49,784 bases of DNA. Source: a virus. Its lineage: Duplodnaviria; Heunggongvirae; Uroviricota; Caudoviricetes. The position numbers and the translations under genes are program-made. Position 1 is the stretch's first letter, and every line of letters starts with the position of its first letter. The notes beneath the pieces were generated by a model, which saw only the letters and a program-made list of their open reading frames with translations, was not told the DNA's origin and searched no databases. Location of the stretch: IMG/VR virus record IMGVR_UViG_2879736954_000010; one strand, given 5' to 3'. This document shows, piece by piece, positions 24,865-33,577 of this stretch.

Positions 24865-24907
24865 TGAGGTGTACTGGCAATAGCGGACACTACCATTTGT
24901 TCTTTTT

Positions 24908-25726
24908 TTAAGCAGCCATCTGATGATATTTTTCCCTGAAGGCTGCAGGGGAGATATTCCCCAGACGAGAGTGACGACGCTGACGATTGTAGAAAATCTC
25001 AATGTATTCCCGTATTACTGAGATGGCTTCATCCCGGTTATTAAAACGATAGTGGCTCAGGCTCTCATTTTTCAGCGTTCCCCAGAAGCTTTCCATCGGA
25101 GCGTTGTCGTAACAGTTACCTTTACGCGACATTGATGTTTTCAGACCAGACTGCTCCTGTATGACCCGGTAATCGTATGCGCAGTACTGTGAACCTCGAT
25201 CAGAGTGGTGGATTAGCCCGGCAGGTGGGCGCTGGCTCCTGAGCGCCATAAACAGGGCTTTACCTGTCAGCTCTTTTGTCATGCGCTCTCCCATGGCGTA
25301 GCCGACAATTTCGCACGTATAAACATCTTTGATGCCAGCGAGGTACAACCATCCCTCCTGTGTGGCAACATACGTCAGGTCCGCCACCCAGACCTGATTT
25401 GGTGCTGTAGGAGCGAACGTCTGGTTCAGCAGATTTGGCGCAACTGGCAGATTGTGGTTCGGGTTCGTAGTCGCTCTGAACTTGCGTTTCTGCTTACAGC
25501 GTAGCCTCAGCTCCTTACGAAGACATGCCAGTCGGTCACGACCAACGATGATGCCATTCTCTGCCAGCTCCGTCTGGAGCCGCCGGGTTCCATATGTTTC
25601 GCGAGTGCGGATATGTGCCACCTTAATCTCCAGTTTTAGCCGCTCATCACTTTGTTTTCTGTCTGAGGGTTCATGCTGTACCCAGTTGTAATAACCGCTC
25701 CTGGATACACCAAATACCTGACACAT
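24908..25726 (-). CDS. IS600 transposase OrfB (DDE integrase domain)
   Basis: 272 aa, IS3-family OrfB with HSDRGSQY...D...E catalytic region. Confidence 0.85.
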   Translation of the reverse strand: MCQVFGVSRSGYYNWVQHEPSDRKQSDERLKLEIKVAHIRTRETYGTRRLQTELAENGIIVGRDRLACLRKELRLRCKQKRKFRATTNPNHNLPVAPNLLNQTFAPTAPNQVWVADLTYVATQEGWLYLAGIKDVYTCEIVGYAMGERMTKELTGKALFMALRSQRPPAGLIHHSDRGSQYCAYDYRVIQEQSGLKTSMSRKGNCYDNAPMESFWGTLKNESLSHYRFNNRDEAISVIREYIEIFYNRQRRHSRLGNISPAAFREKYHQMAA

Positions 25727-25761
25727 CGCTTCAATGGGAAATTGTTGTCGCCATTGTTCGA

Positions 25762-26064
25762 TTAACGCGTATTTTTCAGCGACTCCTGTGCAAAATACGC
25801 TGTTGCTTTTTTTAATATATCTCGCTCAAGGCGAGCTTCATTTAACGCCTTACGCAGTTGCAGAATTTCAGATTCCAGTTCAGCCAGCGTGCGGGAACCA
25901 GGAGTACCGAGCCCTTTTCTGGCGGCGGTAACCCATTGTCCTAAAGTGCCTTCAGGAAGAGATAATCGGGAAGCGCCTTCACTGATCGAAAGTTGATTTT
26001 CAAGAACCGTTCTGACAGCTTCGGCTTTGAACTCTTTAGAGTAACGTTGGGTTTTTCTGCTCAT
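25762..26064 (-). CDS. IS600 OrfA (HTH/leucine-zipper protein)
   Basis: 100 aa, IS3-family OrfA ending ...LKKATAYFAQESLKNTR. Confidence 0.85.
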   Translation of the reverse strand: MSRKTQRYSKEFKAEAVRTVLENQLSISEGASRLSLPEGTLGQWVTAARKGLGTPGSRTLAELESEILQLRKALNEARLERDILKKATAYFAQESLKNTR

Positions 26065-26115
26065 TATTAGCTCCTTCTGATGCCATTCTATTTCAGGAAG
26101 GAGTGTCCGTTAAAC

Positions 26116-26310
26116 TCAGGCTACCTCACCCGTCCCGGATACCGAGAACGTTTCGTCCAGCAACTGGAGAGAGTTCGACGGTGGCATCATTGCCCATGCC
26201 GGAGGCGCTGGAGGTTTCGGCTGAGGATGGCACAGGGCATTTTCCTTTGACGAGCACCCGACCACCATTATCAAGCTTGCGCCGAAGAGCATCATTTTCA
26301 GCTTTCGCAT
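26116..26310 (-). CDS. Rz1: Rz1-like o-spanin lipoprotein embedded in Rz (C-terminus replaced by IS600-derived codons)
   Basis: Signal/lipobox ...LIMVVGCSS followed by proline-rich [13 protein letters not shown], as lambda Rz1; ORF runs 12 nt into IS600. Confidence 0.6.
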
Positions 26311-26530
26311 CAGCTAACTCCTTCGTGTATTTAGCATCGAGTGCATCAGCATCACGCTGGCGCTGCTGCATGTCAGTAATGGTTGCGTTCGCCAGCTTCA
26401 GTTCTCCGGCGTTTTTGTCGCGCTGCTCTTTGTAGGTAATGGCGTTATCACGGTAATGATTAACAGCCCATGACAGGCAGACGATGATGCAGATAACCAG
26501 AGCGGAGATAATCGCGGTGACTCTGCTCAT
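26129..26530 (-). pseudogene. Rz: Rz i-spanin, 3'-truncated by IS600
   Basis: [34 protein letters not shown]...[17 protein letters not shown] matches lambda Rz; the C-terminal ~22 codons, present in the second copy at 33244-33489, are missing. Confidence 0.75.
26130..26305. repeat. 176-bp Rz/Rz1 segment, inverted-repeat copy A (partner 33244-33419)
   Basis: Encoded peptides (…[58 protein letters not shown]…) identical in both copies on opposite strands. Confidence 0.8.
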
Positions 26531-27060
26531 TGATCTATCCCCCAACAGGCTAATGCGCTTTCCTGGTCACGACGAATAACCTGTCCATAGCAGTTATTTG
26601 AACGTATGCGGCAATCGCGCCCAACATCTTTTATCCACCAGCGAATCGCCTCGCATGCGCCCTTACGATCACCGGCATTCAGCCGCTTATAAAACGTCGA
26701 CGGGAAACACTTACCGGGGCCAATGTTATAGGGGCAAAATGACGCTATACCCGCTTTCTGGGGTTCGGTCAGAGGTACTTTAATATTGCGCTCCACCCAT
26801 GCCAGCGCCTTATCACGTTCAATAGCGTTAACCTGGTCACATTTTTCCTTCGACAGCTTCATTCCCGGTATGACAGGCTTACCATCCACCATTGTGGCAC
26901 CACGACAGATGGTCCATATGCCAGAACCATCACGGTATGCCGTTGTGTGATTACCCTCTTTTTCGTTCAGAAACTGGTCAAGTATCTGGGGAGCAGACGC
27001 GCCTGCGGCAATCAGCGCCAGAACAGCAGCCGACAGGCCGTATTTGATTTTTGCGCTCAT
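26527..27060 (-). CDS. R: SAR endolysin (T4-lysozyme-like muramidase, phage 21 R-type) with N-terminal signal-anchor-release segment
   Basis: N-terminal hydrophobic stretch [15 protein letters not shown] followed by EGN[17 protein letters not shown], similar to P21 R (…[23 protein letters not shown]…). Confidence 0.85.
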
Positions 27061-27125
27061 GGATATTTATCAGGATTTATCGGCAACAAATAACGAGCCA
27101 ACTTATATACGCCTTTTAAGATAAG

Positions 27126-27755
27126 TCAGCCCCGGCTGGATCCAGTCATCAGGCTCTTTCTTAAAGGGGGAGTATTGAAATCACGAAGAAGAGCCTCCCG
27201 CACCGCAGCATCCATGTCTGCACCACTGGCAAGTGCTTCAATCTCTGCCGCCACCTGCAAATACCCCATGCAACGGCCAATGCGTTTCATAACTCTGGTG
27301 TTTTCGTCTTTCAGGCATCTGATAGCGAGATTAATAATTTTCAGGCAGTGATGATGCGATGCCCGGACAGGTTTTCCGTTCTCATAAACGACGAACTCAC
27401 CCTCTTCACAGGAAACCCTGAAAGGCCGATGGGGTTCCTGGTCTTTATCCGGTGCAGACGCAATAAAATCACTTTTATGCTCTTCCTCTCCGGCACTGTT
27501 AACCGTAATGACGTACTCAGGCCGCAGGTAAGCCGCCTCTTTTTCTGACAATGCGGCCGGTAAAAACTTTTCCTGCAAAAACTTCATAAAAGTCTCGTGA
27601 GCGACTTTGTGGCAGTAATCGTAAATCGCCGCATAATGCTCATCGCGGCGTTTGTTTTCATCTTCAGAACTCACCAACGCCGACAATTTTTTATTAAGCT
27701 CAGTGATTTCATTTTCCAGGTGATTGAATCGCTGATTCATTTCTTCATGCTTCAT
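27126..27755 (-). CDS. Hypothetical protein (209 aa) inserted between holin and endolysin; N-terminal coiled coil, Cys/His-rich C-terminal half
   Basis: Long ORF translationally coupled to holin stop; no family recognised by eye. Confidence 0.5.
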   Translation of the reverse strand: MKHEEMNQRFNHLENEITELNKKLSALVSSEDENKRRDEHYAAIYDYCHKVAHETFMKFLQEKFLPAALSEKEAAYLRPEYVITVNSAGEEEHKSDFIASAPDKDQEPHRPFRVSCEEGEFVVYENGKPVRASHHHCLKIINLAIRCLKDENTRVMKRIGRCMGYLQVAAEIEALASGADMDAAVREALLRDFNTPPLRKSLMTGSSRG

Positions 27756-27758
27756 TAT

Positions 27759-27974
27759 TTACTCTCCCCGTGCAGCCTTACGCTTGTCTTCTCTTATTTT
27801 GAAATACAGATTCGTCAGATAAGTCAGAAGCCCCAGAAGCAGACTTCCCAGCACACCAATCGCAGCCCACTGTGATGGCCTGACCTGATCCAACCACTGC
27901 AAAAACCAGTAGCCGGCACTGCCGGCGGAGGTGCCGTAGGCAATGCCCGTTGAAATTTTGTCCATGGATTTCAT
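27759..27974 (-). CDS. S: S21-type pinholin with dual-start motif (MKSM)
   Basis: [31 protein letters not shown]...[35 protein letters not shown] is nearly identical to phage 21 S as I recall it. Confidence 0.85.
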
Positions 27975-28776: not shown

Positions 28777-29157
28777 TCAGGGATGTTCAATATATTTGTC
28801 CATTTCTAACCGGACACCCAACATCATCAACATTCCTTCCACCACCCCCTCGGCTTTTTGTAGCTTCTTTCCTATATAACCATCTGAGCATCCATGCTTC
28901 CGCGCCAGCGTCATGAATGTCATCCCAAACACGTAGTAGTCAACCAGCAAGTCATGTAGATCGTTGTTGTTCCGGTTAAGGCGGGCCATACACCCACATA
29001 TAACCATCGCGTCATCGTCACAGCATTGCGGGCGGGATTTTACTTTTGAAGGGATTAATCCCTTAAAACCGGCAGCAATGGACGACCAGGTCACATCCTC
29101 ATGATTATTAGCCACCCACGCGCCCCAGCGCTCAAGAACCTGCTGAATATCACGCAT
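28777..29157 (-). CDS. Q: Late antiterminator Q (QuuD/phage-82-type)
   Basis: [60 protein letters not shown]... closely matches DLP12 QuuD as I recall it; start at internal Met. Confidence 0.8.
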
Positions 29158-33243: not shown

Positions 33244-33419
33244 AAAGCTGAAAATGATGCTCTTCGGCGCAAGCTTGATAATGGTGGTCGGGTGCTCGTC
33301 AAAGGAAAATGCCCTGTGCCATCCTCAGCCGAAACCTCCAGCGCCTCCGGCATGGGCAATGATGCCACCGTCGAACTCTCTCCAGTTGCTGGACGAAACG
33401 TTCTCGGTATCCGGGACGG
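33244..33419. repeat. 176-bp Rz/Rz1 segment, inverted-repeat copy B (partner 26130-26305)
   Basis: See copy A. Confidence 0.8.
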
Positions 33420-33445
33420 AATCATCAGCGACCAGACAGCATTGA
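33254..33445 (+). CDS. Rz1: Rz1-like o-spanin lipoprotein (apparently complete)
   Basis: [63 protein letters not shown]; lipobox plus proline-rich segment. Confidence 0.6.
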   Translation: MMLFGASLIMVVGCSSKENALCHPQPKPPAPPAWAMMPPSNSLQLLDETFSVSGTESSATRQH

Positions 33446-33577
33446 GAATGCTTCAGGAGTACATCAGGATCCAATGCCTTGGGGGGTAGCGGTAATTTTA
33501 CTCATTATCCTTCAAATCAGATTCTGTTGTCAGAGGAATGGGGGACGCTGGATTCGCAAGAGCTTTTTATGGGCAGT

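Follow-up and report, generated by a model that had tools for sequence, protein, structure and literature searches.

The window analysed here is a 49,784-nucleotide stretch of DNA from a virus of the class Caudoviricetes (IMG/VR record IMGVR_UViG_2879736954_000010). Our subject is a 630-bp open reading frame (ORF) on its minus strand, which lies between a gene for a pinholin of the phage 21 type (S) and one for a signal-arrest-release (SAR) endolysin (R). An earlier note on this DNA had placed a gene of 209 aa between S and R, and we confirmed the ORF at 27126..27755, with an ATG start and a product of that length. It is a short isoform of a family that is already catalogued, and the allele found here is frameshifted at its 3' end. 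The features at the locus are:

27126..27755, minus strand: the ORF, a short isoform, without DUF1327, of the PHROG 1085 / long-YdfR family; allele frameshifted at the 3' end
27759..27974, minus strand: S21-type (P21-type) pinholin, 71 aa, with a dual start M1/M4 (MKSM); PF04971, E 5.5e-35; PHROG holin
27762..27769, minus strand: Shine-Dalgarno-like GGGGAGAG, in the final holin codons, just upstream of the ATG of the ORF
26527..27060, minus strand: endolysin R, a phage lysozyme; PF00959, E 5e-24; hydrophobic SAR-like stretch at the N-terminus

The ORF starts 3 nt past the stop of the pinholin gene and ends 65 nt before the endolysin gene, the order at the first junction being holin TAA, then ATA, then the ATG of the ORF. 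Because of this spacing, and because GGGGAGAG stands just upstream, the translational coupling to the holin stop proposed in the earlier note is plausible and co-translation with the pinholin is probable; its further view, that the ORF lies within the late lysis cassette and would be co-expressed from the late promoter, is supported. A prophage of Escherichia coli CFSAN029787 matches the window at 99.7% identity over a segment that extends from the replication genes to most of Rz and includes Q, four tRNAs, S, the ORF and R; its copy of the ORF is labelled a hypothetical protein in RefSeq. Public contigs that carry exactly this 209-aa protein number at least 1000, and the protein goes there by names such as 'bacteriophage protein [Shigella flexneri]'. 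The most likely source of the window is therefore S. flexneri.

Family assignment and distribution

The earlier note could assign no family to the protein, but the ORF matches the profile of PHROG 1085 (function unknown) at E 1.2e-73, over profile positions 117-288 of 296, as do all 16 of the diverse relatives that we tested. This PHROG corresponds to the part of NCBI 'YdfR family' proteins that lies outside DUF1327. A search of 5.8 billion proteins returned 132 homologues, all of them, where a source is named, from E. coli or Shigella. Many of these homologues, with lengths of 268-333 aa, have PF07041 (DUF1327) as their N-terminal domain and bear the name 'YdfR family protein'; by cluster member counts, these long forms make up about half of the homologues. 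The long relatives score PF07041 at E 6.6e-35, while the 209-aa protein has no match to it at E <= 1 (the gathering threshold of the model is 25 bits). A 333-aa 'YdfR family' protein (P0004, encoded at locus L010) shows 82% protein identity over 94% of the 209-aa query. The ORF is thus homologous to the C-terminal two-thirds of 'YdfR family' proteins, but the domain that marks that family is absent from it.

The family is small. When 1.84 billion cluster representatives were searched exhaustively with a profile, no more than 42 proteins came up at E <= 0.001; a HEAT/NACHT protein and a leucine-rich repeat (LRR) protein that also came from this search were rejected as large repeat proteins matched through repeat composition. 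More distant members, found by a second, word-indexed search, are hypothetical proteins of Salmonella enterica with the same two-domain layout, and a profile-profile comparison aligned the E. coli and Salmonella long forms collinearly from the N-domain to the tail (99.9% probability). In a species survey with one genome per species, 3 of 185,579 genomes had matches: S. flexneri, E. coli and one other Escherichia species. The PHROG 1085 / long-YdfR family is confined to Escherichia, Shigella and Salmonella. Within that range it is sparse, with a tblastn match to the 209-aa protein in only 20 of 50,697 phage records and a megablast match in 92 of 5426 complete E. coli genomes.

Nothing above noise was found for the 209-aa protein in Pfam, NCBIfam, PADLOC or the PDB sequences; no PADLOC-DB defence profile matched at E <= 1 (0 families), and a search of the PDB with a profile of 117 sequences gave no real match. 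Weak matches to EzrA, a relaxase hairpin, GCN4 fusions and HEAT_2 were set aside as reflecting generic coiled-coil or helical-hairpin composition. The checks suggested in the earlier note, by Pfam and structure prediction, thus matched no characterised family, solved structure or recognisable fold. In the literature on YdfR, DUF1327 and genes between S and R, we found functional work on RNase E interactors and nothing on the C-terminal domain of the family. Both the sequence and the family are already catalogued, yet they have never been characterised.

Domain organisation, structure and selection

Full-length members of the family, as aligned, consist of an N-terminal DUF1327 domain (approximately 75 aa), a linker, a coiled coil containing …LENEIAELNKKLS…, a variable acidic linker and a C-terminal domain (C-domain) of approximately 110 aa. 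The C-domain carries the motifs RPFxV…GK…H…AI..L, GRCMGYLQxAAEIEA and PPFKKxPxxWxxPGxxYLKxRI. The 209-aa protein divides into three regions, whose helices and disorder were predicted with AlphaFold2 (AF2) and its per-residue confidence, the predicted local distance difference test (pLDDT):

27564..27755, minus strand: residues 1-64, predicted helical hairpin / coiled coil; AF2 helices 3-27 and 31-64; the first ~16 codons are specific to the short form
27435..27563, minus strand: residues 65-107, an acidic linker of variable length with predicted disorder; pLDDT <50 at 74-108; indel-rich alignment columns; isoelectric point (pI) 4.45
27165..27434, minus strand: residues 108-197, the conserved C-domain, with helices and three short strands; motif G-R-C-M-G-Y-L-Q-x-A-A-E

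The core motif G-R-C-M-G-Y-L-Q-x-A-A-E occupies residues 160-171, and its G160, L166, Q167 and A169 are invariant in the 117 aligned sequences. Pairwise ratios of nonsynonymous to synonymous substitution (dN/dS, Nei-Gojobori) are 0.16-0.37 in the C-domain, 0.4-0.8 in the N-terminal helices and ~0.9-1.9 in the linker. The pattern is in keeping with a real protein whose C-domain is under constraint and whose linker is not.

The protein is hydrophilic: a hydropathy scan found no membrane segment in it, with a 19-residue Kyte-Doolittle maximum of 0.76 against 1.75 in the holin. The 209-aa protein is, on these predictions, soluble and cytoplasmic, and it probably oligomerises through its N-terminal helices. 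The AF2 model of the 209-aa allele itself, built from an alignment of 25 sequences, was too poor to use (mean pLDDT 52). An intact relative of 217 aa, 89% identical and modelled with the 117-sequence alignment, reached a mean pLDDT of 67 and gave a usable C-domain (pLDDT 72-84). The model of the relative has a hairpin at 3-64, disorder at 74-108, strands at 112-130 and helices at 134-149, 155-176, 183-193 and 210-216. Searched against BFVD, it found no relative by fold (best E 0.013, template modelling (TM) score 0.15), nor did a Foldseek search of the PDB (best E 2.1).

The earlier note had described an N-terminal coiled coil followed by a Cys/His-rich region. Both quoted peptides, MNQRFNHLENEITELNKKLSAL and HHHCLKIINLAIRCLKDENTRVMKRIGRC, are in the protein and both regions are present, but the Cys/His cluster does not stand as a conserved feature: H136 is kept in 116 of the 117 sequences and C162 in 104, while H135, C137 and C147 are found in only 24, 23 and 22. 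We considered a zinc finger or other metal site for this cluster and rejected it since the ligands are not conserved.

Short and long forms

The DNA of the ORF is 94.6% identical (blastn) to the 3' two-thirds of the gene for the 333-aa long form, starting at codon ~17 and continuing beyond the stop. Ahead of this, where the long-form gene has ~390 nt for DUF1327 and its linker, the ORF has 16 codons of its own (MKHEEMNQRFNHLENE). Among the 83 loci that we collected from IMG/VR and from genomes, intact short forms occur commonly, at lengths of 185/186, 213 and 218/223 aa, and the family gene starts 1-5 nt behind the holin stop in approximately 80 of these 83, a sample that is biased toward relatives of the short query. 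In the homologue search, counted by cluster members, short and long forms are about equally numerous.

A recent deletion within the long form was considered as the origin of the short one and rejected, since the latter has its own conserved 16-codon start and is intact in several lineages. The earlier note had named, as a finding that would refute it, that the ORF is a degraded fragment of a larger known gene. In part this applies, for the ORF matches two-thirds of a 333-aa gene, the 3' part, and has lost its conserved tail to the frameshift; on the other hand, short forms with a start of their own are a common intact isoform. Those of 185-223 aa in E. coli prophages and in the Stx2a phage Stx2_12E129 share the architecture and the start spacing of the ORF at 50-89% identity, but they retain the ...W..PG..YLK.RI tail; among the loci surveyed, the 209-aa allele that lacks this tail forms one lineage, which occurs in S. 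flexneri and a few E. coli. The long forms (P0004 of 333 aa; gp05 of Stx2-converting phage 86, 268 aa) likewise share the slot, the C-domain motifs and the late-operon context, and differ in keeping DUF1327 and an intact tail, where the 209-aa allele has the 16-codon N-terminus of the short forms and a frameshifted tail.

The complementary truncation also exists, in which DUF1327 stands alone in the same slot (ydfR of the K-12 Qin prophage and the 104-aa genes of mEp460 and PhiR47_1). K-12 YdfR (b1555) is encoded in the order essQ-ydfR-rrrQ, between an S21-type holin and a lysozyme, and belongs to the same modular family, whose long members join the YdfR domain to the sequence of the 209-aa protein. 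With 103 aa, however, YdfR is the N-domain only, and the 209-aa protein is the complementary coil, linker and C-domain; nothing in it corresponds to YdfR residues 1-72, the part reported to bind the N-terminal half of RNase E.

Two E. coli prophage proteins (P0118 and P0151) carry the same N-terminal coiled coil, with or without DUF1327, on an unrelated C-terminal domain, …GSFTKIGPFFLKVER, for which Pfam has no match. From these fusions it follows that the slot between S and R carries alternative C-terminal 'heads' on a shared stalk.

Frameshift and loss of the conserved tail

Nearly all relatives terminate in …NTPPFKKEPDDWIQPGLTYLKRRI, while the 209-aa allele terminates in …NTPPLRKSLMTGSSRG. 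A three-frame translation shows SPFKKEPDDWIQPGLTYLKRRI readable in another frame, with a stop that would be at 27103-27105. The features at the 3' end are:

27166..27170, minus strand: frameshift site, a C5 run (GGGGG on the plus strand); the closest intact relative has C6 (ACTCCCCCCTTTAAG in L010 against ACTCCCCCTTTAAG in the ORF)
27103..27165, minus strand: conserved family tail FKKEPDDWIQPGLTYLKRRI and stop, encoded in the -1 frame relative to the ORF
27126-27164, minus strand: in-frame end of the ORF, LRKSLMTGSSRG and stop, which replaces the tail

The closest intact gene reads ACT CCC CCC TTT AAG where the ORF reads ACT CCC CCT TTA AG, so that one C has been lost from a run of six, and it is because of this frameshift that the ORF stops at 27126. 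The signature PPFKKxPxxWxxPGxxYLKxRI is consequently not in frame in this allele. The lost tail holds K199, W205, P208, G209, Y212, L213, K214 and R216, each conserved in 110-116 of the 117 sequences, and several of the tail residues are invariant even in the Salmonella branch. The tail-less allele accounts for 15 of the 83 surveyed loci. Judged from its reading frame, the 209-aa allele is most likely crippled, or at least impaired, through the loss of its tail.

The slot between S and R

The earlier note had stated that S and R are normally contiguous, which holds as a majority rule: of 342 phage records, 241 had one matched place that took in at least 80% of the concatenated S and R sequences, and single-piece S-R junctions made up 40 of the 60 rows sampled. 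The interval between them is nevertheless a known variable slot, occupied by ydfR in K-12 Qin (essQ-ydfR-rrrQ) and by relatives in the viable phages mEp460, PhiR47_1 and Stx2 phage 86 (gp05). Because most S and R genes join directly and few phage or E. coli genomes carry the family gene, the latter is, by its distribution, dispensable and patchily spread.

In the E. coli and Shigella contexts examined, the family gene always lies between S21 and R. Salmonella and related contigs have it in the interval from Q to the holin, with 0-2 genes separating it from the latter. Every cassette inspected had a class II or P21-type holin and a lysozyme with an N-terminal SAR-like segment. The Salmonella family gene may be upstream of a late-operon terminator and outside the lysis cassette. 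One S. enterica contig has a GC-rich hairpin and a T-run (GCCGCACAGCGCGGCTTTTTCTTTTT; L004 4898-5015) between the family gene and the holin. In Stx2 phages 86 (L008 2993-3307) and 12E129 (L003 3277-3591), an ORF of 104 aa, encoded on the opposite strand, separates the family gene from R; the window lacks this ORF.

State of the prophage

The remaining features that bear on the late operon of the window are:

28777..29157, minus strand: late antiterminator Q, collinear with a gene annotated 'antiterminator Q family protein' at locus L001
28267..28577, minus strand: cluster of four tRNAs between Q and the holin S (Gly-TCC, Thr-TGT, Arg-TCT and a tRNA with anticodon CAT)
26126..26530, minus strand: Rz i-spanin (PF03245), cut by an insertion sequence (IS) to 134 aa against 155 aa
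26116..26310, minus strand: embedded Rz1 o-spanin, its C-terminal residues swapped for IS-derived sequence
24866..26129, minus strand: IS3-family insertion sequence of 1264 bp, with orfA (100 aa) and orfB (272 aa)

Q and the tRNA cluster together define where the late operon with the ORF begins. The tRNA with anticodon CAT is called Met by ARAGORN, and a near-identical copy is Ile in RefSeq. The IS3-family element, which from its size and host we take to be a candidate for IS600, has a second copy at 42744-44006 in the same orientation, 99.6% identical. The first copy replaces ~2.5 kb that in the CFSAN029787 relative holds the 3' end of Rz, ParD/ParE, KilA-N and small ORFs. Because the element truncates both Rz and Rz1, the lysis cassette in the window is defective. 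The prophage, as its interrupted spanin genes indicate, is decaying, and a normal completion of lysis would no longer be possible.

A partial second copy of the 3' part of Rz lies at 33244-33467 on the plus strand; it is 96.9% identical to L001 7451-7674 and overlaps in sequence with what is also present in the truncated Rz at 26130-26305. This suggests either that another lambdoid prophage left a remnant here or that an IS brought about a rearrangement. In related prophages, the genes just downstream of Rz are accessory ones: Tad2-like, Bor and ParDE toxin-antitoxin genes (L010 5092-5613; L012 5050-5343; L001 7834-8368). The flanks of the lysis cassette are a hot spot for cargo.

Alternative explanations

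That the ORF is no gene, only a chance frame or debris lacking a coding history, is a reading for which the frameshifted end is the sole point in favour. It is ruled out by the 132 homologues, by purifying selection on the C-domain and by the conserved start position behind the holin, and coding sequences are annotated at the same position in RefSeq genomes and phage records; with homologues in that number, a C-domain dN/dS of 0.16-0.37 and the exact protein on at least 1000 contigs, the ORF is a real gene, and we give the contrary view negligible weight. The same frameshifted end might instead be read as a site of programmed -1 ribosomal frameshifting, by which the locus would yield two products, one of 209 aa and one of ~217 aa. 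A heptamer C_CCT_TTA that fits X_XXY_YYZ does lie in the zero frame (27160-27170, minus strand), the intact tail is visible out of frame behind it, and a -1 slip would restore that tail, giving a ...WIQPGLTYLKRRI peptide. The heptamer was, however, created by the lineage-specific loss of 1 nt from the C6 run, and C_CCT_TTA is not known to be among the efficient slippery sites of E. coli; nor was a stimulatory structure seen, though none was looked for. Since all other lineages encode the tail in frame, we regard programmed frameshifting as very improbable.

The two roles suggested in the earlier note were a regulator of lysis timing and moron cargo. As a regulator, the protein would be cytoplasmic and co-translated with S21, would bind the cytoplasmic face of the pinholin or the tethered SAR endolysin, and would shift triggering in either direction. 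Cytoplasmic accessory regulators encoded in lysis cassettes are known, for example T4 RIII and P1 LydB, and the likeness to these small soluble proteins, encoded beside the holin and co-expressed with it, is one of way of working only: there is no similarity in sequence or fold, no lysis phenotype is known, and most S21 cassettes are without the gene. The position of the family gene fits such a role, with its start 1-5 nt behind the S21 stop in approximately 80 of the 83 loci and its place just upstream of the holin in loci of the Salmonella type, and so do the pairing of a class II / P21-type holin with a SAR-like lysozyme in each inspected cassette and the combination of a soluble protein, a coiled coil predicted to oligomerise and a conserved domain of binding type. 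Yet neither the ORF nor its 16 relatives resemble any lysis-category PHROG or a known lysis regulator, and, examined as an antiholin, the 209-aa protein has neither homology to lysis proteins (PHROG) nor a membrane-spanning segment. The gene is missing from most S-R cassettes of this type, the slot can hold DUF1327 alone (K-12 ydfR, mEp460), whose sole reported partner is RNase E, and in other genera a terminator-like hairpin or other genes separate the family gene from the holin; the interval from Q to the lysis genes also accumulates unrelated cargo. On balance we consider a role in lysis timing, the main rival to our own proposal, unlikely. Cargo, whether a moron, a lysogenic-conversion gene or a defence gene, would be expressed from the repressed prophage and benefit the host, for example by superinfection exclusion or anti-phage defence. 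The toxin-antitoxin, Bor and Tad2-like genes around the lysis cassettes of related prophages, and the dispensability and patchy distribution of the family gene, are in keeping with this. But the ORF is embedded in the Q-dependent late operon and coupled to it, it has no PADLOC match, and its GC content (0.45-0.50) is like that of its neighbours, without a compositional break. A scan found 4 promoter-like sites where 3.4 were expected from shuffled sequence and 2 terminator-like sites where 2.3 were expected, and none brackets the ORF. With signals of its own at chance level and a neighbour-like composition, the ORF is an embedded late gene and not a classical moron, and the suggestion of cargo seems to us quite improbable.

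Proposed function

The best overall explanation, in which our confidence is somewhat better than even, is that the ORF is a non-essential accessory gene of the late operon, from a modular YdfR-type family and present here as a crippled allele. The ORF in the window is an ordinary leftover, a shortened and frameshifted copy of an accessory gene, rather than a new component of lysis. For the family, we propose that the gene would be made together with the pinholin from the Q-dependent late transcript of a lambdoid prophage. The N-terminal helices would supply oligomerisation, and in intact relatives the C-domain would be a protein-binding or effector module in the same pathway as the DUF1327 domain. 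The family would then modulate host RNA decay, or another late step of host takeover, outside the lysis machinery. In two-hybrid assays and by co-purification, the catalytic, N-terminal half of RNase E is reported to interact with residues 1-72 of YdfR, and RNA co-purifies with Strep-YdfR (PMC13232886). Because repeatedly fused domains usually act in one pathway, and because DUF1327 is reported to bind RNase E, we suggest, tentatively and as a rather doubtful proposition, that the C-domain may be a binding module acting alongside DUF1327 in RNA decay or a related pathway.

Several observations weigh against this account. Overexpression of ydfR changes few transcripts (PMC13232886), and the evidence on RNase E does not apply directly to a 209-aa protein without DUF1327, the link being one of domain-fusion logic only. 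The coupling to the pinholin and the adjacency to holin and SAR endolysin in all contexts examined fit a lysis role at least equally. We infer loss of function from the frameshift in the sequence, and this allele is widespread, with at least 1000 contigs carrying it, and also sits in an apparently intact E. coli prophage. The structural model has only moderate confidence, with a mean pLDDT of 67.

A bolder form of the accessory-gene explanation, to which we would give only a small chance, is that the coil and the C-domain constitute a new class of cytoplasmic late regulator in phages with pinholins and SAR endolysins, either a timing factor acting on the cytoplasmic face of S21 or the effector half of a two-part system, the DUF1327 half of which would dock on RNase E. 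The 209-aa allele is a poor starting point for experiments, because it is frameshifted, dispensable and patchily distributed and sits in a prophage with broken spanin genes; the better copy to study would be an intact one, long or short, taken from E. coli or Stx2 phage 86. If it is true that intact members tune pinholin triggering or RNA decay, the family would be a new accessory player in a well-studied lysis system, and a function would be gained as well for K-12 ydfR and for its relatives in Shiga-toxin phages.

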